From the NCBI GenBank assembly GCA_041562555.1, contig JBFEXS010000018.1, positions 1 to 27,511 on the forward strand: DNA of 27,511 bases, written 5' to 3'. The stretch is from Sulfurimonadaceae bacterium. Its GTDB lineage: Bacteria > Campylobacterota > Campylobacteria > Campylobacterales > Sulfurimonadaceae. Each line of letters opens with the position of its first letter. The first letter of the stretch is position 1. The notes under the pieces were generated by a model. That model did no database searches. It was not told where the DNA came from and saw only the letters and a list, made by a program, of their open reading frames with translations. Positions 8,111 through 27,492 of the stretch are shown here, one piece after another. A program made the translations under genes and the position numbers.

Positions 8111-9691
8111 ATGCAATCATACACACCTAAAGATATCGCCGGCAAACTCTCGCAACTCTTTATGCGAAATCCTTTAACCCCTCTATTGGGCTTGTTTTTA
8201 CTACTGCTGGGATACCTTGCTCTTGCCCTGATGCCCCGTGAAGAGAATCCGCAGATGGTCGTCAGCGGTTCGACTGTCATCATTTCACTTCCCGGTGCAA
8301 CAGCCAAAGAAGTCGAAAAGGTCATCGTCAAGCCGGCTGAGCGTAAACTCAAGGAGATCAAAGGCATAGAGAACATTCATGGTATGGCCATGGATAACTT
8401 TGCTGTACTCAATGCAGCCTTTTATATTGGAGAAGAGAAAGAAGACTCCAACCTCAAGGTCTATGACAAAGTCATGCAAAATATGGATATTCTTCCTAAA
8501 GGAGCTGTTCAGCCGATCATTAAACCCCTTGATATCGATATCGATATCCCTGTTGTCTCTGTTGCTTTTTATTCCCATGACAAGACGATGCAGCCATCGG
8601 AGCTCTATGACAAGGTCAAATTCATCCAACACCATATCAATGGACTTGAAAACGTTGCCGTAACGAATATAAAAGGTGGTCATAAACATCAATATAATAT
8701 CTTGGTCGATCTGCATAAACTCTCAGGATACAATCTCTCTATGGGACAGATCGTCCAAGCCGTAAAAGCACTCTCCTACAATGTTCCCGAAATCAAGAAC
8801 CGTACAAAAACCAATGAGATCGTGATGTTTGGTATCAAGAATGCCATTGATAGTGCGGATGATATCGGAAATATCATCGTAGCTTCCTACATGGGTTCAC
8901 CTATCTATCTCAAACAGATCGCGACCGTGACAAAAGGTCATAATATTCAGGACTTCAAATCTGCAATGATCTCGTCAAAAGATGATAAAGGAGTGTTCTC
9001 GCCGCTTCACGAACAGGTCACATTGACAGTCTCTAAACTTCAAGGTACCAATGCTGTCATCATCGCAGACGCCGTTAAAAAAGAGCTGGAAAAGTACAAG
9101 GCAAAGATGAAAGAATCCGGCATATCCTATGTGATCACACGTAATGACGGAGAACGTGCCAACGAAGCGGTCAATGAACTGGTCTTTCACCTCATCCTCT
9201 CAATCATCATCATCGCGATCTTGCTTATCTTTGTCCTGGGCTGGAGAGAGTCTTTGATCGTCACCTTCTCCGTACCTGCGATCTTGGCCATCACACTTTT
9301 TGTCGCTTTTATCACGGGACAGACGATCAACCGTATTACACTCTTTGCCTTCTTGTTAAGTCTAGGCTTACTCGTCGATGCCGCGATCATCGTGATCGAG
9401 AACATCCACCGTCACTTCCATTCTCACGATGCTGAAGATATGGACCCGGATGCATTGATGACGATGGCCACCGATGAGATCGGACCACCGACGAACATAG
9501 CTACCTTGGCGATCATTCTGACGATGGTGCCTATGGCCTTTGTCGGACAGATGATGGGGCAGTTCATGAAACCTATCCCTGCCAATGTCCCCGTAGCACT
9601 TATCGCATCCCTGTTTGTCGCATATATCTTCACTCCCTATCTTGCGACACGTCTGCTCAGAAAACCTAAGCATGGAAAGGAGCAAAAATAG
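8111..9691 (+). CDS. RND (AcrB/AcrD/AcrF family) permease, N-terminal half
   Basis: TM1 followed by MPREENPQ, LPGATAKEVE, then TINRITLFAFLLSLGLLVDAAIIVIENIHR and GQFMKPIP; ends after the TM6-equivalent segment. Confidence 0.9.
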   Translation: MQSYTPKDIAGKLSQLFMRNPLTPLLGLFLLLLGYLALALMPREENPQMVVSGSTVIISLPGATAKEVEKVIVKPAERKLKEIKGIENIHGMAMDNFAVLNAAFYIGEEKEDSNLKVYDKVMQNMDILPKGAVQPIIKPLDIDIDIPVVSVAFYSHDKTMQPSELYDKVKFIQHHINGLENVAVTNIKGGHKHQYNILVDLHKLSGYNLSMGQIVQAVKALSYNVPEIKNRTKTNEIVMFGIKNAIDSADDIGNIIVASYMGSPIYLKQIATVTKGHNIQDFKSAMISSKDDKGVFSPLHEQVTLTVSKLQGTNAVIIADAVKKELEKYKAKMKESGISYVITRNDGERANEAVNELVFHLILSIIIIAILLIFVLGWRESLIVTFSVPAILAITLFVAFITGQTINRITLFAFLLSLGLLVDAAIIVIENIHRHFHSHDAEDMDPDALMTMATDEIGPPTNIATLAIILTMVPMAFVGQMMGQFMKPIPANVPVALIASLFVAYIFTPYLATRLLRKPKHGKEQK

Positions 9692-11367
9692 TGTTTAAAA
9701 AGTTTGAGAATAGTATCTTTGACATCCTGTCTGACAATAATAAAAAGCGTATAGTACTCCTGGGAACTCTAGTCTGTTTTACCCTCTCCGTATTGATGAT
9801 CCCCAGTGAGCTTGTCCTCGCCAAAATGCTTCCTGGCAAGAACAATGATACCTTTACTATCTATATCGATCTTCCAAACGGATCCTCTATTCACCGGACC
9901 GAAGAGGTATCGCGTTGTGTTGTCGGGTTCATTCAAAAAGAGAAAGAGGTCCTGGACACGGAGATCTTTTTAGGTATGGGCAGCCCACTCGATTTTGCAG
10001 GACTCATCAAGGGTTCACATTTCAAGAACAGCGAGCACCTCAGTGAGATCGTGGTCAATCTGAGCAAGAAGCATCATAGAGATGAGCCTTCGTACCTAAT
10101 GGTTCAGCGTATACGTCCACAGGTTATTGAGAGTTGTGAGCTTCTCTACCCTGGAACAACGATCAAATTCGTAGAACCTCCTGCAGGACCTCCGGTACTC
10201 GCAGCCATAGTCGCTGAGATCTATGGTGAAGATTCCAAAGGGATCCGGGACTTGGCCATTAAAGTGAAAGATGTCTTTAAAAACACTCCGGGGCTTGTTG
10301 ATATCGATATCATGCAAGATGAGATATATGATAAATTCGAGGTACGTGTTGACAGTATCAAGATCGCACGTTCGGGCCTCAATGTCAAACAGGTCAACAA
10401 TATCCTCTATCTTGCCTTTGAAGGCATGGATATCTCTGTTAAGAACTCCGAGGTCTATGACGACCAGATCCCGATATTTTTAACGCTCTCTACTGAGACC
10501 AAAGTGTTCAGCTCAAAAAACAAAGAGGCTATTGAAAGTAAACTCGCAAGTCTAAAGCTGATGAATACCATGGGGATGATGGTACCCGTTACCGAAGTCA
10601 TACAACTCATCGCCGTCAAGTCCAATCCGATGATACTGACAAAGAATCTGCATCAGATGACCAATGTCATGGCTGAAACGGACATGCTCTCACAAGTCTA
10701 TCCTCTGATGGATGCTCGCAGTGCACTACTCGAAAAACTTGATGGTGAATACGAGATCAAGAAGATCGGTCTTTTAAACCTCCAACTCAAAGATAAGAAA
10801 ACGGCTAAAGTCTACAGACTACTTTGGGATGGGGAGATGGAACTCACCCTGGACACCTTTGTAGACTTGGGAGGGGCGTTCATCGCCGCATTGGTCCTCA
10901 TCTTCTTGTTGATGGTCGTCTATTATAAAAGCTTCAAACTCAGCGGTATCGTCTTATTAGGAAGCTTTCTCTCTATCATCGGTGTGATCCTTGGTCATTT
11001 TATCATGGACCTTTTTACACAAGAGACCTTTTTTCTCACAGCGACGTCTCTCGTTGGGTTTATCGCCCTGATCGGTATCTCTTCACGCAATTCTCTTCTG
11101 CTTTTAGATTTTACGAAGTCTCTGATATTTGACAAGGGAATGGCACAAAAAGAAGCGATTGCCTATGCTGCTGCGACACGGGCGAAACCTATCTTTTTAA
11201 CGGCCGTAGCGATCATTTTGGCATCAGCTCTATTAGCTTCCGATGCCGTCTTTGGTGGTTTAGGTGTCGCACTCATCTTTGGTACGATAGCAGCCGTTGT
11301 AGCCTCCCTTGTCGTTGTTCCGGTCCTTATGGACAATACTGACCTGCAAAAGGAGTTCACACACTAA
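9691..11367 (+). CDS. RND permease, C-terminal half (separately encoded)
   Basis: GTG start overlapping the upstream TAG, with an AAGGAG SD; KMLPG..., PPAGPP, SLVGFIALIGISSRNSLLLLDF, TRAKPIFLT. Confidence 0.88.
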   Translation: MFKKFENSIFDILSDNNKKRIVLLGTLVCFTLSVLMIPSELVLAKMLPGKNNDTFTIYIDLPNGSSIHRTEEVSRCVVGFIQKEKEVLDTEIFLGMGSPLDFAGLIKGSHFKNSEHLSEIVVNLSKKHHRDEPSYLMVQRIRPQVIESCELLYPGTTIKFVEPPAGPPVLAAIVAEIYGEDSKGIRDLAIKVKDVFKNTPGLVDIDIMQDEIYDKFEVRVDSIKIARSGLNVKQVNNILYLAFEGMDISVKNSEVYDDQIPIFLTLSTETKVFSSKNKEAIESKLASLKLMNTMGMMVPVTEVIQLIAVKSNPMILTKNLHQMTNVMAETDMLSQVYPLMDARSALLEKLDGEYEIKKIGLLNLQLKDKKTAKVYRLLWDGEMELTLDTFVDLGGAFIAALVLIFLLMVVYYKSFKLSGIVLLGSFLSIIGVILGHFIMDLFTQETFFLTATSLVGFIALIGISSRNSLLLLDFTKSLIFDKGMAQKEAIAYAAATRAKPIFLTAVAIILASALLASDAVFGGLGVALIFGTIAAVVASLVVVPVLMDNTDLQKEFTH

Positions 11368-13155: not shown

Positions 13156-15774
13156 TTATACTAGAATCTTCGAGACAATCTCATAAACATTTTTGGATAG
13201 GCCTTCTGTATTAAGGATCTTTTCCAGCTCCTGTTTCATCAGGTTCTTTGACGTCTCATTCAACTTGCGATAATCCTTGAAGACACCGGAAAGTCCCGAG
13301 GCGATCTGAGGATTGATCCTATCAAGTTCAAGAACCTTATCGGCGATGAAACGGTATCCGCTTCCATCTGTAGCATGAAAATGCAGCGCATTTCTTGCAA
13401 ATGAACCAATGAGAGAACGTACAAGGTTAGGCACTTTAATGTCAAAGACCTCATCATCCAGTAATTTCTTAACATTTTCAGGTGTCTCTTTCAGTTCAGA
13501 AGAGGCGATAACTGCCAGGTACTTATTCATGACCAATGTATTGGTTTTATAGCGTTCGTAAAAATCACTCAATGCTTCCCCTTTAGCAGAACCTCTGAGA
13601 TTGGCCAGGACACTCAAAGCACTCAGGCGATCGGTCATATTGTTTGCATTATGATATTGTCTAAGGGCCAATGTCTCATCTTTTAAGGCGCCAAGATATG
13701 ATAAAAGCGTGTTTTTAAGCTTTCTACGTGCCATCTCTTCAGAACTTATCTCATACTCGCATTCCGTATTAAGATAATCATACATTCCTCTGATGTCCGC
13801 ACCGTATTCACGCACGATCTCCCTTTTCAGGAAGTTCTTGGCCATATAGATTGCTTCCACATCCAGGATCCTGCGTGTCTGCATCAGCATCGAGATGCTT
13901 GGAAGGCTTAACATATCTGCCTTTAAAGAGTTGTCAATATTTTTGTCTTTCAAGACGGTAATGAAAGCATTTGCATAGATCTCGCTTTTTCTCATCGGCG
14001 CGTTATGTTCAAGTGCATCGATCAATTTTGTCAACACCATGGTCGCCAAGGTTTGCGAAGCCTCAAAACGATTGAACTCATCCTTATCATGTGCCATCAA
14101 AAAGGCGTATTCTTCAAAGGAATAAGAGGTATTTAGTTTAATTGGTGCAGAGAAGTTCTGGTTCAAAGAGAGTATTGGTGCAGCCTCGATCTCTTCAAAT
14201 ACAAAGGCCTGTGTCTCTTGACTTACCAGTAATATCCCCCGATCGATAAAGGGCTGCTTCTCACCTTCTTCTCTAAGCTTGAGTGCAATCGCATTCCCTT
14301 CTGCATCCAAGATCCCGACTTTGAAAGGGAAAAGATAGGGTTTTTGATCTGTTTGTGTTGGTGAAAGGTATGACTGAGTCAGCGTAAGCTCAAGACTCTT
14401 CTCCTGTTTATTGTACTGAGTCTTGATATCTACTTCAGGCGTACCGCACTGAGAGTACCAGAGTTTGAAATGTTCCATATCAAAGCCTGATGCTTCTTGC
14501 ATCGCCCAGATAAAATCTTCTGTACGGACTGCTTGTCCGTCAAAGGTCTTAAAATACAGATCCATTCCTGACCTGAAGGCATCCTCGCCTATCATGGTAT
14601 GTATCATACGGATCACCTCGGCACCTTTTTCATAGATGGTTGCCGTATAAAAATTATTGATCTGAATATAGGACTCCGGCTTGATCGGATGAGAAGTAGG
14701 ACCTGCATCTTCAACAAACTGACGTTCCTGAAGTGCCTTGACATCGGCAATACGCTGAACTGACCGGGAGTTCATGTCTGCGGAGAACTCTTGATCTCTA
14801 AAGACGGTCAAACCCTCTTTAAGTGTTAACTGGAACCAATCCCTGCAGGTAATACGATTTCCTGTCCAGTTGTGAAAATACTCATGTCCTATCACTGACT
14901 CAATCCCCATAAAGTTCGCATCAGTTGCCGTATCTGCATCTGCAAGGACATAATGGGAATTAAAGATATTCAGTCCCTTGTTTTCCATCGCACCCATGTT
15001 AAAGGAGTCCACTGCCACAATATTGTAGATATCAAGATCATATTCCCTGCCAAAACGATCTTCATCCCATTTCATCGAGTTTTTAAGAGAGTCCATAGCG
15101 TGGGAGCACTGAGCCTCATTTCCCTTGTCACAATAGATATTCAACTCGATCTCTTTGTTACCCATGGTCGTGAAAGTATCTTTGACACAGCCAAGGTCTC
15201 CGGCCACTAACGCATACAGATAAGAAGGCTTTGGATGAGGGTCTTTCCAGATCGCATAATGTTTCCCTTCCGTCAAATCACCGGTTTCGGCCAAATTCCC
15301 GTTGCTTAGTAAGACAGGATAGTCACTCTTATCTGCGATAATCTTCGTTGTATATACTGCCATCACATCAGGTCTGTCCAAGAAATATGTGATACGTCTA
15401 AAACCCTCAGGTTCGTTTTGTGTACAAAAGATTCCACTGGACTTATACAAGCCGTCTAAAGCTGTATTTGCTTCCGGATTAATAATCGTCACAATCTGTA
15501 ATATGAAGTTTTCAGGAAGCCTGTGCAGTCTTAAAGATGTCTCATCTTTTTCATATTCACTTTCATGAAGTTCTCTGCCGTCCAGATGCACAGACTGCAG
15601 TACAATCTCTTCACCGTTCAATACAAGCGGCAGTGCTATATCTGCATGTCGTTCTATCATCATCGTGTTCTTAACACATGTTTGCGTATCGTGAAGCTCA
15701 AACTCCAGGTCTACCGTCCTGATCTCAAACCCCGGTTTTTCGTAATCTTTTAAATATATTTTATCCATACTCAT
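13156..15774 (-). CDS. pepN: Aminopeptidase N (M1 family)
   Basis: IYLKDY, TQNEPEGFRRIT, GAMENKGLN, HEYFHNWTGNRITCRDWFQLTLKEG (HExxH-x18-E), YEKGAEVIRM. Confidence 0.97.
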   Translation of the reverse strand: MSMDKIYLKDYEKPGFEIRTVDLEFELHDTQTCVKNTMMIERHADIALPLVLNGEEIVLQSVHLDGRELHESEYEKDETSLRLHRLPENFILQIVTIINPEANTALDGLYKSSGIFCTQNEPEGFRRITYFLDRPDVMAVYTTKIIADKSDYPVLLSNGNLAETGDLTEGKHYAIWKDPHPKPSYLYALVAGDLGCVKDTFTTMGNKEIELNIYCDKGNEAQCSHAMDSLKNSMKWDEDRFGREYDLDIYNIVAVDSFNMGAMENKGLNIFNSHYVLADADTATDANFMGIESVIGHEYFHNWTGNRITCRDWFQLTLKEGLTVFRDQEFSADMNSRSVQRIADVKALQERQFVEDAGPTSHPIKPESYIQINNFYTATIYEKGAEVIRMIHTMIGEDAFRSGMDLYFKTFDGQAVRTEDFIWAMQEASGFDMEHFKLWYSQCGTPEVDIKTQYNKQEKSLELTLTQSYLSPTQTDQKPYLFPFKVGILDAEGNAIALKLREEGEKQPFIDRGILLVSQETQAFVFEEIEAAPILSLNQNFSAPIKLNTSYSFEEYAFLMAHDKDEFNRFEASQTLATMVLTKLIDALEHNAPMRKSEIYANAFITVLKDKNIDNSLKADMLSLPSISMLMQTRRILDVEAIYMAKNFLKREIVREYGADIRGMYDYLNTECEYEISSEEMARRKLKNTLLSYLGALKDETLALRQYHNANNMTDRLSALSVLANLRGSAKGEALSDFYERYKTNTLVMNKYLAVIASSELKETPENVKKLLDDEVFDIKVPNLVRSLIGSFARNALHFHATDGSGYRFIADKVLELDRINPQIASGLSGVFKDYRKLNETSKNLMKQELEKILNTEGLSKNVYEIVSKILV

Positions 15775-16274
15775 TTTATCTGCTCCAAAACTGTTTCTAA
15801 CGTTCCTTTTATAATTGTGCTCGACTCGGTGATCATCAGATTGAACAGACCATCGAAATCTTCTATTATCAATCCATTTTGATCATACCAGATATCTTTT
15901 GTCTGATAACATTTATCATCATGCGATTTCGTCTTTTCCAGCATACTTTTATCCGAATCCACATAAACATAGACTTCTTTACCCAAGGCGGATGCATAAC
16001 CTATTTCAAATACTGTTCCAGCATCCGGTTCACCATGTCTAAAAGCATTGAGATTAACACATAAGATATCGGCATCCTCTATCAGAGAAATGTTTGCGGT
16101 ATAAATATCCCGACGAATCTTTTCCTTTGGCTGCGAGAAGTCAATCTCATTATCCAAAGGGGCCAAGCCCTCATAGCCATAAGCCTCACACAACTTTTTC
16201 TTCTTATCCAGGACCTCTATCGCATTCAGATAAAAAACGTCAAATCCAGCTAAATAAATCTTCTTTTTTCGCAT
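15771..16274 (-). CDS. Nucleoside 2-deoxyribosyltransferase family protein
   Basis: IYLAG.DVF, DADIL..NL..FR..EPDAGTVFEIGYA.ALGK (catalytic Glu motif), C-terminal NLMI. Start moved to ATG 16274 (MRKKKIYLAG). ATGA overlap with pepN. Confidence 0.9.
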   Translation of the reverse strand: MRKKKIYLAGFDVFYLNAIEVLDKKKKLCEAYGYEGLAPLDNEIDFSQPKEKIRRDIYTANISLIEDADILCVNLNAFRHGEPDAGTVFEIGYASALGKEVYVYVDSDKSMLEKTKSHDDKCYQTKDIWYDQNGLIIEDFDGLFNLMITESSTIIKGTLETVLEQIK

Positions 16275-16280
16275 AATGCG

Positions 16281-16286
16281 ATTGTA
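16281..16286 (-). promoter_or_regulatory. Putative -10 box (TACAAT) 6 nt before the ATG of the deoxyribosyltransferase gene
   Basis: Minus strand reads gtTACAAT-cgcatt-ATG; no SD. Confidence 0.55.
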
Positions 16287-16365
16287 ACGAATTAACGTTA
16301 AATTAACGGTTTTCATCTATAATTATTCCGGTAATAAGCTATTTTATTCTAAAAGGTTTCTTCTC

Positions 16366-18207: not shown

Positions 18208-18897
18208 TTAAAGTGCTTGATACACCTCTTTTAAACCGGTATAGAGTTCATCTGCACTTAATGATGGACTATTTGCCATAATCGATTGCATCACTACATT
18301 ATCTTCTTCCCCATTCCAGACTTTGATGTATGTGCCCTCTTTATATCCGTGATCTTGCCGAAATCGGTTAAGAATATTCTTTCCTATATAAAGAGAATAG
18401 AGTACCTGAAGATTAACGCCGCAGTTCAGTGCCATAGTAAAGAAGTCTGTAATAAACCTGTCCAGATCCAATCCTTCCGGTTTTAAGACATCATACATCA
18501 TTTGCTCGACCATTTTAATGACACCATAAAAATCTTCATCATCCGTTTTTGCCTCGGAATCGGAAAAAGCCTTATATGCATCCTTAGAGACTATCTTTGC
18601 AGCCAAATCCTCTATGCTGCCCAGGCCATTCACCTTGTACTCTTGTAGAAGCAGTGAGAGGACAAAATGCCAGATGTCAATCGTTTCAACCTTGATATTA
18701 TCCCAATCGGGAGCCTTGTTGATCGCCTTCCAATGTTTCCAGGCAAAGGAGTCAATAAGTTCTGCGGACTCCATATAAATACAGCGTTTCCAATCTATCA
18801 CCTTTCCGTTTTTTGTCAGGCCTTCTTCCCAGCCTTTTCCATTTGTCGAGTCGTTCAGTTCTTGTTGAAGTGTTAACATCTGTAAAATTTGTTGCAT
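18208..18897 (-). CDS. dut: Dimeric (all-alpha, Campylobacter-type) dUTP diphosphatase
   Basis: LQQELND, ESAELIDSFAWKHWK, VETIDIWHF, GKNILNRFRQDHGYKEGTYIKVW.GEEDN. Confidence 0.93.
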   Translation of the reverse strand: MQQILQMLTLQQELNDSTNGKGWEEGLTKNGKVIDWKRCIYMESAELIDSFAWKHWKAINKAPDWDNIKVETIDIWHFVLSLLLQEYKVNGLGSIEDLAAKIVSKDAYKAFSDSEAKTDDEDFYGVIKMVEQMMYDVLKPEGLDLDRFITDFFTMALNCGVNLQVLYSLYIGKNILNRFRQDHGYKEGTYIKVWNGEEDNVVMQSIMANSPSLSADELYTGLKEVYQAL

Positions 18898-19153: not shown

Positions 19154-19573
19154 TTAATATTTCCAGACTTCTTTCTGACCGAATCCCATGTTGTTGTCCG
19201 TATATTTAAGTTCAGTTATCTTGAGCTTCCATAACTCTTTATCATCTATATCAGCAGCATATGGATATTCCTTTAGATAAAGATGCTCTCCACGTGAATG
19301 AGGTTTTTCCACCATACCTTTGATCTGTATCCCCTTGATATGTTCGATCTCCTTTGTCTCCACGTGAATATTTGCCGACACATCCGGGTTTTGCAGAATA
19401 TTTGTTATATGTTCCGTATCATTGGATGAAGCAAAGATAAAACAGGCTTCATCCTCAATAAAGGTATAAAACAACGAACATGTCGAAGGCATGTCATTTT
19501 GTGTGGTTGCCAGTGTAAGGACATGATGTTCCTTGATAAAATCAGCCATCATCTTTGGGATCTTATTACTCAT
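19154..19573 (-). CDS. Pyridoxamine 5'-phosphate oxidase-like split-barrel protein (YhbP/UPF0306-like)
   Basis: FIKEHHVLTLAT...CSLFY...SS.DTEH..N...NP.V...IKGIQIKG...LKYTDNNMGFGQKEVW; AGGAG SD; 8-nt overlap with the upstream gene. Confidence 0.82.
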   Translation of the reverse strand: MSNKIPKMMADFIKEHHVLTLATTQNDMPSTCSLFYTFIEDEACFIFASSNDTEHITNILQNPDVSANIHVETKEIEHIKGIQIKGMVEKPHSRGEHLYLKEYPYAADIDDKELWKLKITELKYTDNNMGFGQKEVWKY

Positions 19574-20468
19574 ATGCTACTCCTAAAAAATCTTCAATTC
19601 GCTGTCTTGAGCTCAAGCCATCTCTCCACTCTTGGGGAATCCTGTCCAGTCCATTATAGGCACCGAGTATCATTCCTGCCACCATGCCCCGTGCTGCGGA
19701 ATCTCCTCCGGCATACACGTTCTGTCGCATCGCTTCTGCATAATCATTCTCATACTTCAAGATCAGATGTAAAGCGCCAGGACAGCCCCCCTTTACATTA
19801 CATGATTGACCACAGGCACCGATGGCTTCTACCGTATCATGTTCAACCGATGCTAAAGCTGTCTTAATCCAGCTGTTCATCGTCTCATCTGTGCTCTCTT
19901 CCAACATAGCCAGAATAGAGTTTTTTGGCTTATACCCTTGTAGTATCAGATATAACAGCTGTGAAAAGAAACGTGTGACCTTGATGACATTCTCCGAGTT
20001 GTGGGTCATCTGCGACTGCAAGACAGCAGCATCTTCCAACTCTTTTTGTTTATCGGCATACAAAAGCGCCAAAGGAGAAATACGTCCGACTACACTGAGG
20101 TCTTGAGAACTTGATCCGGCTTCCAAGGCAGACTTACCTTGATTCAGATTTTCCAAGGTAGTCTTACTTGCTCCATCGACATACCCCTTGTATGCGCTCA
20201 TATACTCTTTCCAACGCGCGCAAAAACTTGCCAAAGAGAACTCTTTTTCAAGAGCGACAGATTCCAAAAGCCACATACATTGATCACCATAGTGGGTAAA
20301 ATCACCGGCTTTTTTATCTCCGTGATAATCTGTCATCGGATCATAAAATCCATCCAGATTAGGAAAATGCTCTTTGATTACATCCACTTCATAGACCCAA
20401 TGCCCGCCCAGAGCAAAAGCATCCGCTACTAGGGCACCATAAATAGCACCATATACAGAAGACTTCAT
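19566..20468 (-). CDS. ADP-ribosylglycohydrolase family protein with non-canonical metal motifs
   Basis: GAIYGALVADAFALG, GDFTHYGDQ, QMTHN, NVYAGGDSAARGMVAGMILGAYNG...IPQEW; AAGGA SD. Confidence 0.88.
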   Translation of the reverse strand: MKSSVYGAIYGALVADAFALGGHWVYEVDVIKEHFPNLDGFYDPMTDYHGDKKAGDFTHYGDQCMWLLESVALEKEFSLASFCARWKEYMSAYKGYVDGASKTTLENLNQGKSALEAGSSSQDLSVVGRISPLALLYADKQKELEDAAVLQSQMTHNSENVIKVTRFFSQLLYLILQGYKPKNSILAMLEESTDETMNSWIKTALASVEHDTVEAIGACGQSCNVKGGCPGALHLILKYENDYAEAMRQNVYAGGDSAARGMVAGMILGAYNGLDRIPQEWRDGLSSRQRIEDFLGVAYE

Positions 20469-20493
20469 ACAGATTCCTTGTATCGTTTGAACA

Positions 20494-20502
20494 AGTATAT
20501 CA
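20494..20502 (-). promoter_or_regulatory. Putative extended -10 promoter (TGaTATACT) for the ARH operon
   Basis: TGn-TATACT about 25 nt upstream of ATG 20468. Confidence 0.55.
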
Positions 20503-20525
20503 TAAGTAAAAAATATAGTATAAGG

Positions 20526-20756
20526 CTAAACACTCACCCTAGAAAGATTGACATACCAGTCATCTCGAATATACGACCGATCACGACAAAGTGTAACATG
20601 CAGTTCTTCCTCATACAAAGTAATTTCCTCAAGATACTCTCTTGGTATCTCTAACTCTTCTGCACAAAAGTACTCCCCATCATCGATCGTCTCTATATCA
20701 GGCCATTGCCAACCGTTGTCCAGTTCTGTAATCTTAAACCTTGTCACAAATTGCAT
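20526..20756 (-). CDS. Small acidic hypothetical protein (76 aa)
   Basis: Fills the gap between co-oriented genes; the AGGA SD favours ATG 20756 (MQFVTRFKI...DDWYVNLSRVSV). Confidence 0.7.
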   Translation of the reverse strand: MQFVTRFKITELDNGWQWPDIETIDDGEYFCAEELEIPREYLEEITLYEEELHVTLCRDRSYIRDDWYVNLSRVSV

Positions 20757-20840
20757 CACGATTATCCTAATGAAGTTCATGCAAAATGGTACAAATCCAA
20801 TATCTCAAAACCATTACATTAGCTTACATTTCAAATACAA

Positions 20841-21002
20841 TCACTCTTGCAATGTCTCCTTAATCGATTCTCCAAACTCTGCTGCTTTTTCTTTATCAAC
20901 GGAGACATCCACACTATCCCCACTTGTATCAAGCTCTAATGCACCACTTAGATAGAGACCGATACCACCTGCGATCAACGCCAAAAAAATCCATTTATAC
21001 AT
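20841..21002 (-). CDS. Small membrane-anchored or exported hypothetical protein (53 aa), absent from the ORF track
   Basis: Hand translation: MYKWIFLALIAGGIGLYLSGALELDTSGDSVDVSVDKEKAAEFGESIKETLQE*. GAGGAG SD; ATGTATAA overlap with the sirtuin stop. Confidence 0.75.
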   Translation of the reverse strand: MYKWIFLALIAGGIGLYLSGALELDTSGDSVDVSVDKEKAAEFGESIKETLQE

Positions 21003-21714
21003 CCATAAACTCCTCTATAATCTCCATCATCTCTTCTACAGACTCTTCTGCACCTTTTTGGATAAAATGCTCAAAATATTCATCTATATGCCGATTAAAC
21101 GACCCATAGGCATTCATATACTCTTCTCGCTTAGGGTTTACCAGGATTGAATGCTGAAACTCTTTCGATATGGGAACAATATCGATCACCTGACCACTTG
21201 TTCCGATTGCAATAAAAAGCTTCGAGTTTTCTATCGCCTCATAAATACGCTGGTACATCGGTGCTGCTTCCCCAAACATCACTACATTATGGCGTACGAT
21301 ATCACTTTCACAGCGTGGACAGGCATCATACTCCGTCTGTGCACTGTACCCCACATCCCACACATGCCCGCAGCTCTCACAACGCAGATCGGTCAGTGTC
21401 CCATGCAGATGGATCACCTCCTTGCATCCCGCTTTTTCAAGAAGGTTATCTACATTTTGTGTAAGATTATAGATCTGACCCGGATATCTCTTCTCAAGTT
21501 CTGCCAAAGCCTTGTGTGCCAAATTAGGTTCCTTGTCTGCCAGGTCCTTTCGTCGCGCATTGTAAAACTCTGTCACCAATCTTCTATCTGCCTGCCATCC
21601 CTGCGTAGAACAGACCTGCATAACATCATAATTCTCCCACAAGCCATCATGATCACGAAATGTCTTTATACCGCTAGCCGCACTTAAACCTGCTCCTGAG
21701 ATAATCATGATCAT
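20995..21714 (-). CDS. cobB: NAD-dependent protein deacylase (Sir2 family, class III-like)
   Basis: GAGLSAASGIKTFRD.DGLW, FYNARR (YxxR), PNLAH, TQNVDNL, catalytic HLHG, Zn ligands CESC/CPRC, VVMFGE, IGTSGQV. Confidence 0.92.
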   Translation of the reverse strand: MIMIISGAGLSAASGIKTFRDHDGLWENYDVMQVCSTQGWQADRRLVTEFYNARRKDLADKEPNLAHKALAELEKRYPGQIYNLTQNVDNLLEKAGCKEVIHLHGTLTDLRCESCGHVWDVGYSAQTEYDACPRCESDIVRHNVVMFGEAAPMYQRIYEAIENSKLFIAIGTSGQVIDIVPISKEFQHSILVNPKREEYMNAYGSFNRHIDEYFEHFIQKGAEESVEEMMEIIEEFMDV

Positions 21715-21950
21715 CGAGACAACCTCTTATAGAGATAATCCTCTAACTGTTCTGGTTTTTTTATATCACGTTTTTGAAGCATCATCTCCCCTATCTCATC
21801 ACTGCTAAGGATATCAAAGACCTCAAAAGAAGAACTCTTGTTATAGAAACTTCTTAGAAACTCCAAAAGCAGTTCAAAATTGTCCAATTCATCAATAGTT
21901 TGACGCTGCTGTTTATAGTGCTTGTATTCGTCCCAATCAATCTTCGACAT
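21711..21950 (-). CDS. Hypothetical protein (79 aa) translationally coupled to the sirtuin
   Basis: GGAGG SD, TATAAT at 21978-21973, ATGA overlap with the sirtuin start. Confidence 0.8.
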   Translation of the reverse strand: MSKIDWDEYKHYKQQRQTIDELDNFELLLEFLRSFYNKSSSFEVFDILSSDEIGEMMLQKRDIKKPEQLEDYLYKRLSR

Positions 21951-22065
21951 AAGCCCTCCATGAAGATTTTTAATTATATTAGCACAGAAATCACCCCGTG
22001 TCTATAATAAACTTTTGGAAAAAGCCGATCTTATTTCTAAACAGAGACTTAAGGGAGAAAAAACG

Positions 22066-22242
22066 ATGAATGCCATTATCAAACAGATCCAAGAAGCATT
22101 GGAGCATGGGCGTCCTGCTAATATCCAGACAAGTCCCCTCGCGTCTCAGGTAATCAAAGAGATCCAAAAATGTACACGGACTTCAGAAAAATCAACACAC
22201 CCGATCAAAAACGAGAGCAAAGATTATGCGTATCATGACTAA
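22066..22242 (+). CDS. Small hypothetical protein (58 aa)
   Basis: TATAAT at 22003-22008 and AAGGGAG SD before ATG 22066 (MNAIIKQIQEAL...). Confidence 0.6.
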   Translation: MNAIIKQIQEALEHGRPANIQTSPLASQVIKEIQKCTRTSEKSTHPIKNESKDYAYHD

Positions 22243-22348
22243 ACGACAGACACATTCACGAAACCTTATCACGCGGGAGCTTTCACGAAAACTTTTCTTC
22301 GCTCTTATGCAAACCCTGATCCTTTTATTCAAAAAAAGAAGACACTAA
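22235..22348 (+). CDS. Possible 37-aa basic/hydrophobic peptide
   Basis: Hand translation: MTKRQTHSRNLITRELSRKLFFALMQTLILLFKKRRH*. ATGACTAA overlap with the preceding ORF; fills the gap up to the patB stop. Confidence 0.35.
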   Translation: MTKRQTHSRNLITRELSRKLFFALMQTLILLFKKRRH

Positions 22349-23547
22349 AACCGTCGTGATTGATATGCTCCATGCAAACGGGAAACTGCCTCCTCAACTG
22401 TTGCACGCGGTGTAGCAAGGTTTATACGCATAAAACCATCCCCCTCTTTGCCAAAACTGACACCTGATGAGAGTCCCAACTTTGCTTCCTCAAAGAAAAA
22501 CGTTTTCAATGCTTTATACGGAAGTCCTAGACCACGGCAATCAAGCCAGGCCAAATAGGTTCCTTCCGGTTTTTTCATCGTAATTGATGGCATATACTCT
22601 TTTAAACAAATATCCAAATAATCGATATTTCCCTGAATATGTTCTATTAACCCCTCTAGCCAGTGCTCGCCTTCTTTATAGGCCGTCTCAAAACCGACAT
22701 GGCCAAAGATAGTTCCTTCACCAAAGTGTGTTGCCTTATAAACCTTCTCAAACTCTTTGCGAAGCTCTTCATTGGAGATGCTGACGGTAGAAATGGACAG
22801 ACCTGCTAGATTGAATGTCTTACCCGGACCATAGCAGACGATTGTTCTATCCGCTAACTCTTTGGAAAGACTTCCAAAAGGGATATGCTTACACCCCTTA
22901 AATATCAGATCAGAATGTATTTCATCTGAAAGTACGATCAAATCATGCCTGATACAGATATCTCCCAAACGCCTGAGTTCTTCCTCACTCCATACACGTC
23001 CCACAGGATTATGAGGAGAACATAAGAGCAGCAGCTTACATCTTTCGTCTATAGAAGCCTCCAAAGCCTCAAAGTCCATAGTATAGTAGCCATCTTTTTC
23101 AAGCAACGCATTTTTTACAAGGACTCTGTCGTTATTCGTCACCGAAGAATAAAAAGGAAAATAAACAGGTGACTGGACGATCACCTTGTCACCGATCTCC
23201 GTAAAGGCTTTGATAGCCATGTTGATACTTGCGACCACGGAGGGAGAATAATACATCCACTCACGCTGTAATCTATACGCATGTCGTTTACCGATCCACT
23301 CTATCTGTGCTTCGAACATGGATTCAGGTGCCTCTTCATATCCTAATATAGGATGCCCGATACGCTCAGAAATCGCTTTCATCACAAAATCGGGGGTCTT
23401 AATATCCATATCTGCCACCCACATAGGCAAAACATCATCCGAACCAAAGAGTCTCTTCTTTAATGCATATTTTTCTGCATTGGTCCCCTCTCTCGAAGAA
23501 ACTTCATTGAAATCTGTCTTACCGTCTCGTCTCACTTTTTCTTCCAT
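22345..23547 (-). CDS. patB: MalY/PatB-family PLP-dependent C-S lyase (cystathionine beta-lyase-like)
   Basis: LPMWVADMD, LLCSPHNPVGRVW, SDEIHSDL, PLP-lysine GPGKTFNLAGL, EGTYLAWLD, FMRINLA. Confidence 0.92.
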   Translation of the reverse strand: MEEKVRRDGKTDFNEVSSREGTNAEKYALKKRLFGSDDVLPMWVADMDIKTPDFVMKAISERIGHPILGYEEAPESMFEAQIEWIGKRHAYRLQREWMYYSPSVVASINMAIKAFTEIGDKVIVQSPVYFPFYSSVTNNDRVLVKNALLEKDGYYTMDFEALEASIDERCKLLLLCSPHNPVGRVWSEEELRRLGDICIRHDLIVLSDEIHSDLIFKGCKHIPFGSLSKELADRTIVCYGPGKTFNLAGLSISTVSISNEELRKEFEKVYKATHFGEGTIFGHVGFETAYKEGEHWLEGLIEHIQGNIDYLDICLKEYMPSITMKKPEGTYLAWLDCRGLGLPYKALKTFFFEEAKLGLSSGVSFGKEGDGFMRINLATPRATVEEAVSRLHGAYQSRRF

Positions 23548-25667
23548 ACAGACATCTGAGAAATGGTATGTTGATATTTTCGCGGTGTCTCACGGATCAC
23601 AAAAGGGACATCCTCCGTTGAAACCAATCGAAAATTCCTATCGAGCATCTCTTTCAACCCATCCAAAGTGGAGACTTGCTTACCATGTTCATCTTCATAG
23701 CCACCGATCCAAAACTCTTTTTTCGTATACTCTTCCAGCCAGGTATACGGGGATGTCAATACCAGATATCCTCCTTCATTGATGCGTTCATGCACCGTCG
23801 TCAAGAAAAGATGCGGTTCATAAAGTCTGTCAATCAAATTAGTTGCCATGATAAGATCGTATCCTTTAAAATGAGGCTTAAGATTACATGCATCTCCCTG
23901 CCAGAACTCGACGTTGTCTTTCATACTTTTAAAATCAAAATCTTCGATATCGATCTCAAGACGCTTACCGATATCTCCTTCACCTTTTTGGTAATAACCG
24001 ACTTTACCCTTTGTCTGTAGTTCGACCCCAACCTGTACGAAACGAGCAGAAAAGTCAATCCCCGTTACCTTCTTAAACACTTTTGCCAGTTCAAAAGAAG
24101 CTCGTCCCGTCGCACACCCAAGATCAAGAGCACTCTCCTGTCTTGTGTCCTTCGTATACTCTATAGCCTTTTTTGCACATGCTTGCGCAAAATTCTCTAC
24201 CCCAAAATGACTCTCACCATACTGGAAGTCGCAATACTGCGACACCAATTCATCCGTTTCATAAATATTTTCATCTTCGATCTTCAAATCTTTCCCTTCT
24301 ACATATCTAAACCCTGCATGCTGATAGAAATGACGCCTGAACGCATATCTCGAATGCTTCATAATCTCATTTCCGCTACTGGCCCATGAACCGCCTTTGA
24401 TCAGATTATGCTTTCCGTCAAAAGTGGGAGTTGAAAAATCATCATAGGCCGGGTGAACTTCAAACCCTTCAAAAGCGTCCATGTGCGATTCCGTCCACTG
24501 CCAAACATTTCCCATCACATCATAGACATCACCAAAAGAAAATCGATTTACAGGACAGGATGAAGCCCAATATCTAAAATTTATATTTGCTCTTCTGTCA
24601 TCATACAAAGGTAGATCCTCGATACCTGCACGCTGATATAGTCGATACCATTCTGCCTCACTTGGCAAACGATAGGATTTTCCATCCTTTTGGCTTTTCC
24701 AGCGGCAGAATGCCTTGGCCTCCAAATAGTTCACATCTACCGGCCAACTCAGAGGAAGTTCCATCTCCTCAAGCATCGCACGATAACGGAATGTCCCGTC
24801 CCCCTTATCTATCCAAAAGACAGGATGGCGTATCTTAGAGGTATTTAAAAAAGTAATTCCTTCTGTATCCCAAAGATCATGATCATCATACCCACCATCT
24901 TGGACAAAATCCAGGAATTCTGCGTTAGACACAAGAAATTTACTTGTCTTAAAGGAAGCAACATCAACCTCTTGACGGCCATACTCATTATCCCATCCAT
25001 AAAGATGATGATCCCTTTCTTTACCCAGGACAATCGTTCCGCCTTCAATCGATACCATCTCATTCTTAGGCTCTGTTCCCGTCTCTTCACAACGTAAAAA
25101 AAATCCATTATCCTGAATCATCTCAATAGGAAGCTGACGATGTAAGACTGATGAAGTTTCCAAATGTATGCGTTCATGTTCGATTCCCATAAGTATGATC
25201 CACATCGGGTCTTCTTGTTTTATAGGGAGTGTCATCGGCAATGTAGAGATCAAGCCATCTACTCTCTGACGAACACGTTGTCTGTATTCACGGACTTCTC
25301 TGACCGCAGGCCATTGATAATGCTCTTCATTCATATCGTCCCAGTTCATCTCATCAACACCCACAGCAAACATTGATTCAAAATCAGCATTAATACGCTC
25401 GTGAATGATATTAGCAACAATAAGCTTATTAATAAAAAAGGTAGCCGTATGTCCAAAATAAAAGATCATAGGATGGCGAGTAGGCTCTGATTTCAAATAA
25501 AAGACTTCGTCGTCACTTAAGCACTCGAACAGTTTTTCAAAAAAAGAATAGGTTTTGTGAAAATAGTCACGAATCTCTTCACGTTTTGCATTCACATCAT
25601 TCCCATCAAGTGTCGGAGACATCACATGAAATGTAGCCATTGAACTTGAGTTTATGTTGTGTGACAT
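23532..25667 (-). CDS. ovoA: 5-histidylcysteine sulfoxide synthase / methyltransferase (DinB_2 + FGE-like + SAM methyltransferase)
   Basis: RHPMIFYFGHTATFFINKL, FAVGVDEMNWDD, iron motif GIEHERIHLETSSVL, YGWDNEYG, GNVWQW, HPAYDDFSTP, RYAFRRHFYQHAGFR, LDLGCATGR, GDACNL, NLIDRLY.P, SPYTWLEEYT, RET.RKYQH. The AAGGTGG SD favours ATG 25667. Confidence 0.94.
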   Translation of the reverse strand: MSHNINSSSMATFHVMSPTLDGNDVNAKREEIRDYFHKTYSFFEKLFECLSDDEVFYLKSEPTRHPMIFYFGHTATFFINKLIVANIIHERINADFESMFAVGVDEMNWDDMNEEHYQWPAVREVREYRQRVRQRVDGLISTLPMTLPIKQEDPMWIILMGIEHERIHLETSSVLHRQLPIEMIQDNGFFLRCEETGTEPKNEMVSIEGGTIVLGKERDHHLYGWDNEYGRQEVDVASFKTSKFLVSNAEFLDFVQDGGYDDHDLWDTEGITFLNTSKIRHPVFWIDKGDGTFRYRAMLEEMELPLSWPVDVNYLEAKAFCRWKSQKDGKSYRLPSEAEWYRLYQRAGIEDLPLYDDRRANINFRYWASSCPVNRFSFGDVYDVMGNVWQWTESHMDAFEGFEVHPAYDDFSTPTFDGKHNLIKGGSWASSGNEIMKHSRYAFRRHFYQHAGFRYVEGKDLKIEDENIYETDELVSQYCDFQYGESHFGVENFAQACAKKAIEYTKDTRQESALDLGCATGRASFELAKVFKKVTGIDFSARFVQVGVELQTKGKVGYYQKGEGDIGKRLEIDIEDFDFKSMKDNVEFWQGDACNLKPHFKGYDLIMATNLIDRLYEPHLFLTTVHERINEGGYLVLTSPYTWLEEYTKKEFWIGGYEDEHGKQVSTLDGLKEMLDRNFRLVSTEDVPFVIRETPRKYQHTISQMSVWKKK

Positions 25668-26012
25668 GAAAACCACCTTTACAAGATAAAATTAATTTAT
25701 TCTAGCAGATTTCACACAAAAGACTCAGTAGAGAGTATTTGTAGGGAAAAAAAATCAAAACCGAGGTTATTTGACACATATTTTTTATATATATATTCAA
25801 AAAAAAACAAAAAACACTTTAGTTATAGATAAAAAAATACATAGTGTTATATTTGATGAAACTAAACAAATGGAAATGTGCATAAGAGTTACACAGTATT
25901 TAGATATTAGCTTAAATTATATCTATAGTTACAAATAGAGCTTGAAATCATAGATTTGGATGTTAGAATATTTGTATATATACTATAAAAATATTGTTTA
26001 TTTGGAGGAGTT

Positions 26013-27376: not shown

Positions 27377-27492
27377 TCCAGGCGGCGACCTACGTTCCCA
27401 CACCTGAAAGGTGCAGTATTATCAGCGAAGAGGGGCTTAGCTTCTGGGTTCGGAATGGGACCAGGCGTTTCCCCCTCTCTATAACCACCTGA
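27377..27492 (-). rRNA. rrf: 5S ribosomal RNA
   Basis: Reverse complement reads UCAGGUGGUUAUAGAGAGGGGGAAACGCCUGGUCCCAUUCCGAACCCAGAAGCUAAGCCCCUCUUCGCUGAUAAUACUGCACC...GGGAACGUAGGUCGCCGCCUGGA, with the conserved CCCAUUCCGAAC and helix I pairing; about 116 nt. Confidence 0.97.

Follow-up and report, generated by a model that had tools for sequence, protein, structure and literature searches.

The gene pair

The minus strand of the window (the whole stretch of Sulfurimonadaceae DNA that was analysed, 27,511 nucleotides) carries an ovoA gene whose end overlaps the beginning of a gene for a PatB-family C-S lyase. An earlier note on this DNA had taken the lyase for an alternative to OvoB, the enzyme paired with OvoA in Erwinia tasmaniensis, and the question raised by the locus is whether it departs from the known route to the antioxidant ovothiol A or belongs to it. 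The answer reached here is that the ovoA-ovoB pair is real, ordinary and already known, and that no alternative lyase family is present. The features of the locus are the following.

23532..25667, minus strand: ovoA, 711 aa from ATG 25667, in an open frame that extends to GTG 25676 (TIGR04344 and TIGR04345, Pfam and PDB matches, motifs)
22345..23547, minus strand: ovoB, PatB/MalY-family PLP-dependent C-S beta-lyase, 400 aa (TIGR04350, PDB 5z0q, residues kept)
23532..23547, minus strand: overlap of ovoA and ovoB, 16 nt, from the ovoB ATG (23547-23545) to the ovoA TGA (23534-23532)
25668..26012, no strand: AT-rich intergenic stretch separating ovoA from the divergently oriented orf108-pgeF, holding the ovoA ribosome-binding site AAGGTGG (25679-25673)

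The ovoA reading frame as called (23532..25676, minus strand) starts with a GTG and has an in-frame ATG at 25667, 5 nt downstream of AAGGTGG. The protein made from this ATG is about as long as its relatives of 74-79% identity (709-719 aa, mostly 710-711), which align across 100% of the query. For ovoB, a start at GTG 23535 would leave a 4-nt GTGA overlap with ovoA; ATG 23547 is favoured because tblastn matches in 9 adjacent relatives begin at query residue 1 or 2. The 16-nt overlap recurs in one relative (L038), and overlapping matches were found in 8 more adjacent relatives. By itself, the overlap suggests that the two genes are co-transcribed and translationally coupled.

GC content is 0.338 in positions 25001-26000. 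As a consensus scan of the minus strand of 25668..26012 gave no two-hexamer promoter, we can only infer the ovoA promoter, which presumably lies within that interval. No terminator was seen after ovoB in a simple scan, and an Rfam search of the window returned 5S rRNA only.

A complete three-domain OvoA

Model scores identify ORF 23532-25667 (minus strand) as a complete three-domain OvoA, predicted to be a sulfoxide synthase fused to a 5-thiohistidine N-methyltransferase. It reached 681.6 bits with TIGR04344 (ovoA_Nterm, cut-off 400) and 328.3 bits with TIGR04345 (ovoA_Cterm, cut-off 170), and Pfam recognised DinB_2, FGE-sulfatase and methyltransferase domains. With the EgtB and SenA models, it stayed below the cut-off of each (179.6 against 420 for SenA). 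The closest solved OvoA is OvoA(Th2) of Hydrogenimonas thermophila, also of the Campylobacterota (8khq; E 2.7e-263, 879 bits, residues 31-713), and the C-terminal domain matches OvoM (PDB 9bxl; E 5.2e-113, 382 bits). The 8KHQ paper presents OvoA(Th2) as a sulfoxide synthase of the ovothiol pathway; in its accessible part, OvoB is cited solely as the C-S lyase of Erwinia, and neither "gene cluster" nor "neighbor" occurs in its text.

The translation contains HERIHLE, HPAYDDF and the SAM motif LDLGCATGR, as the earlier note had pointed out. The iron site, which it had given as H-x3-H-x-E, calls for one correction. A paper on OvoA(Mtht) lists three histidines as iron ligands (His68, His159 and His163) and Tyr405 as catalytic residue, and this Glu is absent from that ligand list. 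These four residues correspond to H76, H167, H171 and Y411 here (translation numbering, mapped by sequence and not by structure), and all four are invariant in 12 aligned OvoAs.

The lyase belongs to the family of OvoB

With TIGR04350, the model for PatB family C-S lyases, the second protein scored 522.8 bits (cut-off 340). The earlier description of a full three-domain OvoA overlapping a PatB-family lyase by 16 nt is thus confirmed by the TIGR04344, TIGR04345 and TIGR04350 scores and by the coordinates. The curators of TIGR04350 reportedly remarked on seed members adjoining ovoA; a literature search for "TIGR04350" gave no text match, and one for "OvoM" with "ovothiol" yielded an unrelated spelling only.

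The opposition between PatB and OvoB, on which the idea of an alternative lyase was built, fails on three counts. First, Erwinia OvoB is itself of the MalY/PatB family: PDB 5Z0Q, a class I/II aminotransferase-fold protein identified as Erwinia OvoB in the 2021 survey (PMC8433421), matches the window lyase over its full length (E 1.7e-75, 258 bits, residues 28-394). Second, a 2026 paper counts "MalY", a CDD family, as OvoB in its list of genes co-localised with these synthases. Third, in Methyloversatilis thermotolerans an OvoB homologue adjacent to ovoA is the basis of a predicted ovothiol pathway (Cheng et al. 2022, PMC8943887), an adjacency like that of the window in a different phylum. Both adjacent ovoA-ovoB pairs and the co-localisation of "MalY" as OvoB are therefore already in print. 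The supplementary tables of PMC8433421 list OvoB accessions genome by genome, so pairs from Sulfurimonadaceae may be among them. The window pair has in common with the Erwinia OvoA/OvoB system the three OvoA domains and the lyase family, and its main value lies in correct annotation: it is to be labelled ovoA-ovoB.

As no Erwinia locus was among the best 80 OvoA loci listed in the contig scan, Erwinia OvoB was represented by a stand-in from Neptunomonas antarctica, which aligns to 5z0q without gaps (E 1.4e-133) and scores 443.7 bits on TIGR04350, above the cut-off of 340. Identity between this stand-in and the window lyase is 35%. The OvoB paper is reportedly that of Naowarojna et al. (2018, Org Lett).

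Published OvoB residues were mapped through the alignment of the stand-in with 5z0q onto a 79-row alignment. As quoted in PMC8433421, these are the catalytic Lys240, the PLP contacts Y66, V100, V101, Y125, N176, D204 and H207, and a substrate pocket deduced from docking (S352, D356 and R364), in which D356 is implicated in substrate selectivity. The window lyase keeps Y66, V100, V101, Y125, N176, D204, H207 and K240, that is, all the PLP-binding and catalytic residues of Erwinia OvoB, as well as S352 and R364. Since Lys240 and the PLP contacts are shared by all other PatB-family rows, they speak for an active lyase and not for ovothiol specificity. D356 is replaced by Ser, so that Arg355-Asp356 of Erwinia OvoB reads Val-Ser here.

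Neither pocket position proved usable as an OvoB marker. D356 is also missing from three ovoA-linked Geobacteraceae copies within the Erwinia-type branch described below, two of them adjacent to ovoA and one about 1.3 kb downstream. At position 352, most ovoA-linked copies from three families (f12, f4 and f7) have Asn; within the window group, as delimited in an initial tree, 19 of 22 rows have Ser.

Co-occurrence and linkage with ovoA

TIGR04350 gave 6 matches in the window's own genome (88.9% complete, or 89%), and only one, this ovoB, was above the cut-off; no other PatB-family gene was found in that assembly. OvoA was present in 80 of the 401 genomes of our phylum sample. A PatB above the cut-off occurred in all 80 of them, compared to 112 of the 321 genomes devoid of OvoA. 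Within the window's own family, both genes were found in 30 of 34 genomes and neither in the remaining 4.

A survey of ovoA neighbourhoods had been proposed in the earlier note, and it shows that linkage is not universal. In 39 of the 80 OvoA genomes of the phylum sample, PatB immediately follows ovoA on the same strand, and in 4 it is 1-6 kb downstream; in 34 it is unlinked, and in 3 its place is not listed. Among the best 80 named OvoA loci, 39 had an adjacent PatB, 9 had one nearby and 22 had none within the DNA covered, while for 10 the downstream DNA was too short to judge linkage. In the named loci listed, linkage was seen as well in Methylococcaceae, Thiobacillus, Geobacteraceae and Pontiella.

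Sulfurovum mangrovi (NZ_CP087125.1), of the same phylum, has ovoA and a gene for a "PatB family C-S lyase", both so named by the automatic annotation of RefSeq, in the same order and orientation, the two being 1 nt apart instead of overlapping by 16 nt. Geothermobacter has OvoA and no PatB above the cut-off. On a Rahnella plasmid, the enterobacterial record that was inspected, ovoA stands alone, in contrast to the overlapping genes of the window, and no PatB match was obtained at E up to 1e-40.

Two relatives lacking both OvoA and PatB allow the locus to be compared with an empty site. In these, pgeF is followed by orf79-yhbP-dUTPase, and exactly ovoA-ovoB is missing. The downstream genes orf79 and the YhbP-like gene were considered as possible parts of the pathway and rejected, as both persist in these two relatives. 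Such clean presence or absence of the pair among close relatives offers a natural comparison for the role of ovothiol in sulfur-oxidising Campylobacterota.

The status of sole PatB in the genome, the co-occurrence in every OvoA genome of the sample, the adjacency in about half of them and the joint absence in two relatives lend good support to the view, already put forward in the earlier note, that this PatB is the dedicated lyase of a self-contained two-gene ovothiol module, as far as gene content can indicate. The protein would then act as the 5-histidylcysteine sulfoxide lyase OvoB.

The place of the lyase in the PatB family

In a quick maximum-likelihood tree, unrooted and with Erwinia OvoB present as the stand-in only, the window lyase sits in a 24-row branch (SH-aLRT 95), all rows of which come from OvoA-bearing genomes. 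Together with two long rows (L098 and L174), this branch is the neighbour of the Erwinia-type one (11 rows, SH-aLRT 100), at a joining support of only 85. By this placement, the window lyase is on a different, neighbouring branch of the same family as Erwinia OvoB.

The ovoA-linked PatBs do not form one clade and are spread over several branches. Adjacent copies from Thiobacillus, betaproteobacteria and Methylococcaceae make up a branch of their own, and the Sulfurovum mangrovi lyase, 42% identical to that of the window, falls in yet another, beside PatBs of OvoA-less genomes. That OvoB homologues are polyphyletic was already stated in the 2021 survey (PMC8433421). With ovoA-linked lyases on several PatB branches, an OvoB assignment is better made from genomic context combined with family membership than from resemblance to the Erwinia enzyme only.

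The ovoA-coupled lyases of Sulfurimonadaceae have Val/Ile-Ser at positions 355-356, against Arg-Asp in Erwinia. We consider it possible, but rather doubtful, that they constitute an OvoB lineage of their own, apart from the Erwinia type. If they did, this lineage could stem from an independent recruitment out of general PatB lyases, and its substrate preference, or the tightness with which it works with OvoA, could differ.

The window protein could also be a general cysteine-S-conjugate or cystathionine beta-lyase of sulfur amino-acid metabolism, incidental to ovothiol if involved at all. Going by the names of the matched PDB molecules, PatB/MalY enzymes are broad beta C-S lyases, and OvoB itself is termed "a broad specificity beta-lyase" in a 2025 paper. 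B. subtilis PatB, E. coli MalY and Treponema cystalysin share family and fold with the window lyase, and solved PatB-like enzymes with no ovothiol link, 4dgt (361 bits) and 6qp3 (B. subtilis PatB, 336 bits), outscore 5z0q against it; cystalysin (1c7n) reached 300 bits and MalY (1d2f) 230 bits. By score, then, B. subtilis PatB is closer to the protein than Erwinia OvoB is, and PatB-family genes do occur in about a third of the OvoA-less genomes counted above. However, these three enzymes have no OvoA partner, whereas in the window's family the gene occurs only alongside ovoA. Two of the 4 relatives devoid of it miss exactly the pair at the same site, and such joint loss with ovoA is not expected of a housekeeping lyase. 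The coding overlap with ovoA is conserved, and the 24-row branch contains no protein from an OvoA-less genome. We therefore regard a general lyase as unlikely, and retain a dedicated OvoB as the preferred reading.

Predicted pathway and product

Onto the gene identities, conserved catalytic residues, linkage and joint presence or absence observed here, we carry over by inference the chemistry of the enzymes characterised from Erwinia and Hydrogenimonas. With its N-terminal part, OvoA would join cysteine to the histidine ring at C5, relying on non-haem iron and O2, and so form 5-histidylcysteine sulfoxide. The PatB-family PLP enzyme, acting as OvoB, would cleave the cysteinyl C-S bond to yield 5-thiohistidine, an imidazole nitrogen of which would be methylated by the C-terminal SAM methyltransferase domain of OvoA to produce ovothiol A. 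That the stop codon of one gene and the start codon of the other overlap suggests joint production of OvoA and OvoB. The pair is thus very probably the ordinary bacterial ovothiol A pathway, laid out in this Campylobacterota genome as an operon of two genes.

A different 5-thiohistidine product, for instance the unmethylated compound or a further modified derivative, appears quite improbable. Recent papers do describe such derivatives, among them N-acetyl-5-thiohistidine and thiohistidine dipeptides, for other OvoA-type clusters. In a sister genus (g6), OvoA has no fused methyltransferase (frames of 462-487 aa, 3 genomes), and a stand-alone methyltransferase copy is present in only 2 of 4 genomes. 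In the window, by contrast, the methyltransferase domain is fused and intact, judging from its TIGR04345 score and SAM motif, and neither an acetyltransferase nor an ATP-grasp gene stands beside the pair.

Synthesis of the selenium analogue ovoselenol can practically be dismissed: OvoA shows distant homology with OvsA, a selenoxide synthase (8ux5, 71 bits), and its C-terminal domain is homologous to OvsM (9bxh, 222 bits), but the scores with 8khq and 9bxl are far higher, SenA remains below its cut-off, and selD is absent from the window and, in the 88.9%-complete assembly, scores no higher than 37.7 bits (cut-off 125), which makes selenium chemistry unlikely. The preference of the earlier note for a sulfur product therefore stands. 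To our knowledge, a C-S lyase plays no part in the ovoselenol route.

As for the physiology of the organism, SoxB was not found in the assembly, so that only the names given to related records back the label "sulfur-cycling". The genome encodes the cbb3 oxidase subunit CcoN (658 bits), which indicates that the organism meets O2, and it is when meeting oxygen that it is predicted to make ovothiol A.

An OvoA-OvoB pair read from sequence

The two genes of the pair lie on the reverse strand and overlap.

23532..25676, (-): ovoA open frame from ORF calling, followed by the ovoB frame
22345..23547, (-): ovoB, PatB-family C-S lyase, 400 aa, 522.8 bits on TIGR04350 (cut-off 340)

Judged from its sequence, the window OvoA is complete. 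Its N-terminal module scored 681.6 bits on the NCBIfam equivalog TIGR04344 (cut-off 400) and its C-terminal methyltransferase 328.3 bits on TIGR04345 (cut-off 170); the Pfam domains were DinB_2, FGE-sulfatase and SAM methyltransferase, and the top solved-structure match was OvoA of Hydrogenimonas thermophila (8khq, E 2.7e-263, window residues 31-713), all in agreement with the complete three-domain protein described in the earlier note. In the profile search, the ergothioneine and selenoneine synthase models stayed below their own cut-offs. The nearest named OvoA loci, drawn from all bacteria, encode proteins 74-77% identical to it. The start is most likely the ATG at 25667, as previously placed, since AAGGTGG is found 5 nt upstream and the resulting length, 711 aa, is typical of the closest relatives. 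All motifs quoted earlier were found in the translation, including the one proposed as an H-x3-H-x-E iron site. That description calls for correction: for a related OvoA, a published study assigns iron site and catalysis to three histidines and one tyrosine. Their counterparts here, H76, H167, H171 and Y411, are unchanged across 12 aligned OvoAs.

ORF coordinates and the TIGR04350 score bore out the 16-nt overlap and the PatB-family assignment of the second gene, whose ATG precedes the ovoA stop by 16 nt. A GTG start, leaving a 4-nt overlap, is also possible; the ATG is favoured because tblastn matches in 9 adjacent relatives start at residue 1 or 2.

The PatB-family lyase and Erwinia OvoB

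The lyase had been presented as an alternative to OvoB. We rejected this reading, as the OvoB of Erwinia tasmaniensis is itself a full homologue inside the PatB family. This enzyme is PDB 5Z0Q, according to a 2021 survey of bacterial ovothiol genes (PMC8433421). The 5z0q chain, entered in the PDB under the name "Aminotransferase, class I and II", matched residues 28-394 of the window OvoB (E 1.7e-75). Erwinia OvoB was represented by a stand-in, the sole above-cut-off PatB-family gene of Neptunomonas antarctica, where OvoA is unlinked. The stand-in scored 443.7 bits on TIGR04350 and its top PDB match, gap-free, was 5z0q (E 1.4e-133), which places the Erwinia type within the PatB family. From these comparisons, the window pair reads as an ordinary ovoA-ovoB arrangement, genuine and correctly recognised. 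Such an arrangement is already published and in automatic annotation: a 2026 paper equates the CDD family "MalY" with OvoB and tabulates it as neighbouring 4.4% of all genes for non-haem iron sulfoxide/selenoxide synthases; an OvoB homologue gene adjoins ovoA in Methyloversatilis thermotolerans (2022 paper, PMC8943887); and RefSeq annotates Sulfurovum mangrovi with ovoA then "PatB family C-S lyase", the gene order of the window.

The published PLP and catalytic residues of OvoB are kept in the window protein (Y66, V100, V101, Y125, N176, D204, H207, K240), as are S352 and R364; D356 is replaced by Ser, and is missing too from ovoA-linked copies close to the Erwinia type. The invariant residues are invariant in the whole PatB family, and are thus a sign of a working lyase, not of a specific one. 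Identity to the Neptunomonas stand-in is 35%, and several solved PatB-like enzymes without an ovothiol link outscore 5z0q as matches to the window OvoB.

A quick maximum-likelihood tree (unrooted, short search, several long or compositionally odd rows) was built from 80 PatB-family proteins. Besides the window protein, the named loci contributed 24 of their 48 linked copies (all 9 non-Campylobacterota plus 15 picked for spread) and the phylum sample 45 of the 58 that were fetched; the Neptunomonas stand-in, the Sulfurovum copy and 8 plasmid-borne PatB/MalY references completed the set. The window OvoB fell in a branch of 24 rows (SH-aLRT 95), of which 20 are linked copies and 4 unlinked; every row belongs to a genome with OvoA, and no protein of a genome lacking OvoA lies among them. 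The neighbouring branch of 11 rows (SH-aLRT 100), joined to it in this unrooted quick tree with a support of only 85, holds the Erwinia-type stand-in, the unlinked copies of family f11 and three linked copies from Geobacteraceae, of which two adjoin ovoA and the third lies about 1.3 kb downstream. The ovoA-linked PatBs, whose grouping the earlier note proposed to check, did not form a single clade, well-supported branches forcing at least 8 changes. This accords with the polyphyly of OvoB homologues stated in the 2021 survey (PMC8433421).

Linkage and co-occurrence

The window assembly, 88.9% complete at 2.10 Mb in 137 contigs, contains one OvoA, and its single above-cut-off PatB-family match in the profile search is the window ovoB. 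In an evenly drawn phylum sample of 401 genomes, OvoA was found in 80 and above-cut-off PatB in 192, the latter in 80/80 OvoA genomes versus 112/321 without OvoA. Within the window's own family, 34 genomes strong in the sample, OvoA and PatB were found in one identical set of 30, and both were missing from the other 4. The strongest evidence comes from the locus itself. The gene order pgeF / ovoA-ovoB-orf79-...-yhbP-dUTPase is commonly conserved in the family; in two relatives without OvoA and PatB, orf79-yhbP-dUTPase lies directly beside pgeF, with precisely ovoA-ovoB absent, so the two genes are gained or lost as one unit. Genomic context therefore points to the window PatB as the dedicated lyase of the OvoA pathway, in line with the earlier note.

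Linkage was recurrent but not universal. Coordinate comparison placed the PatB gene directly downstream of ovoA and in the same orientation in 39 of the 80 phylum-sample OvoA genomes, 1-6 kb downstream in 4, elsewhere in 34 and at an unlisted place in 3; by family, linkage ranged from 4/4 (f12), 8/10 (f4) and 4/15 (f7) to 0/17 (f11). Among the best 80 named OvoA loci, the PatB gene was adjacent in 39 and within about 1-6 kb in 9, 22 had no PatB gene in the DNA covered and 10 ended too early to judge; the two samples overlap in species, so they are not independent, and close kin are counted repeatedly. Adjacent pairs also occur in Methylococcaceae, Thiobacillus, Geobacteraceae and Pontiella. 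Geothermobacter hydrogeniphilus (G402, locus L085; OvoA 56% identity) has no above-cut-off PatB-family gene genome-wide (best 148.8 bits), so some OvoA organisms must rely on a different lyase.

Two variant layouts were seen. In Sulfurimonas-type loci (L043, L045, L047, L048, L055, L058, L064), 1-4 ORFs (1.0-4.4 kb) separate ovoA from ovoB. In genus g6 (G174, G231, G365, G285), whose named loci L083, L095 and L110 are Sulfuricurvum, OvoA has no methyltransferase fused to it, its frames measuring 462-487 aa, and ovoB follows 24-86 nt later; a methyltransferase of the OvoA C-terminal type was stand-alone on another contig in 2/4, truncated but fused in 1/4 and not found in 1/4.

Selenium and oxygen

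The preference for the sulfur product over ovoselenol was supported: no selD scored above cut-off in a profile search of the 88.9% complete assembly, and the window protein matches OvoA far better than it does the selenoxide synthase OvsA. A cbb3-type oxidase subunit is encoded in the assembly, and fits an organism meeting low oxygen, oxygen being required by the OvoA chemistry. SoxB was not found in this assembly at the same completeness.

Other genes of the window

Downstream of ovoB lie:

22066-22242, (+): 58-aa ORF without Pfam match, on the opposite strand
21711-21950, (-): orf79, a conserved 79-aa ORF, its stop overlapping the Sir2 start
19154-21714, (-): Sir2-family deacylase, 84-aa ORF, ADP-ribosylglycohydrolase and YhbP/PNPOx-like protein, in a row

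Profile searches gave no family match for the orf79 product. Its homologues are found 3' of ovoB in 20/80 named loci (gap of 5-30 nt in L042, L051 and L059), and are retained in 2 of the 4 relatives without ovoA-ovoB, G015 and G030 giving no match. The ovoB-orf79 spacer (21951-22344), with the 58-aa ORF as its conserved core, measures 285-395 nt in the window and L038-L040 and is absent from other relatives. In these closest loci, L038-L040, the Sir2 and glycohydrolase genes sit between orf79 and yhbP; among named loci the former occurs in 8/80 and the latter in 6/80 (plus one weak 23% match), and yhbP and dUTPase genes are widespread.

Elsewhere we observed:

8111-9691 and 9691-11367, (+): RND efflux permease as two abutting ORFs, matching first and second profile halves
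15771-16316, (-): nucleoside 2-deoxyribosyltransferase-like ORF, overlapping the start of aminopeptidase N (13156-15774)
18208-18897: dimeric epsilon-type dUTPase, near the preceding ORF
27377-27492, (-): 5S rRNA gene

The permease ORFs come after TolC-like and adaptor genes, and their split could be natural or a frameshift. As the 5S rRNA gene is close to the contig end, an rRNA operon probably starts just past the window.
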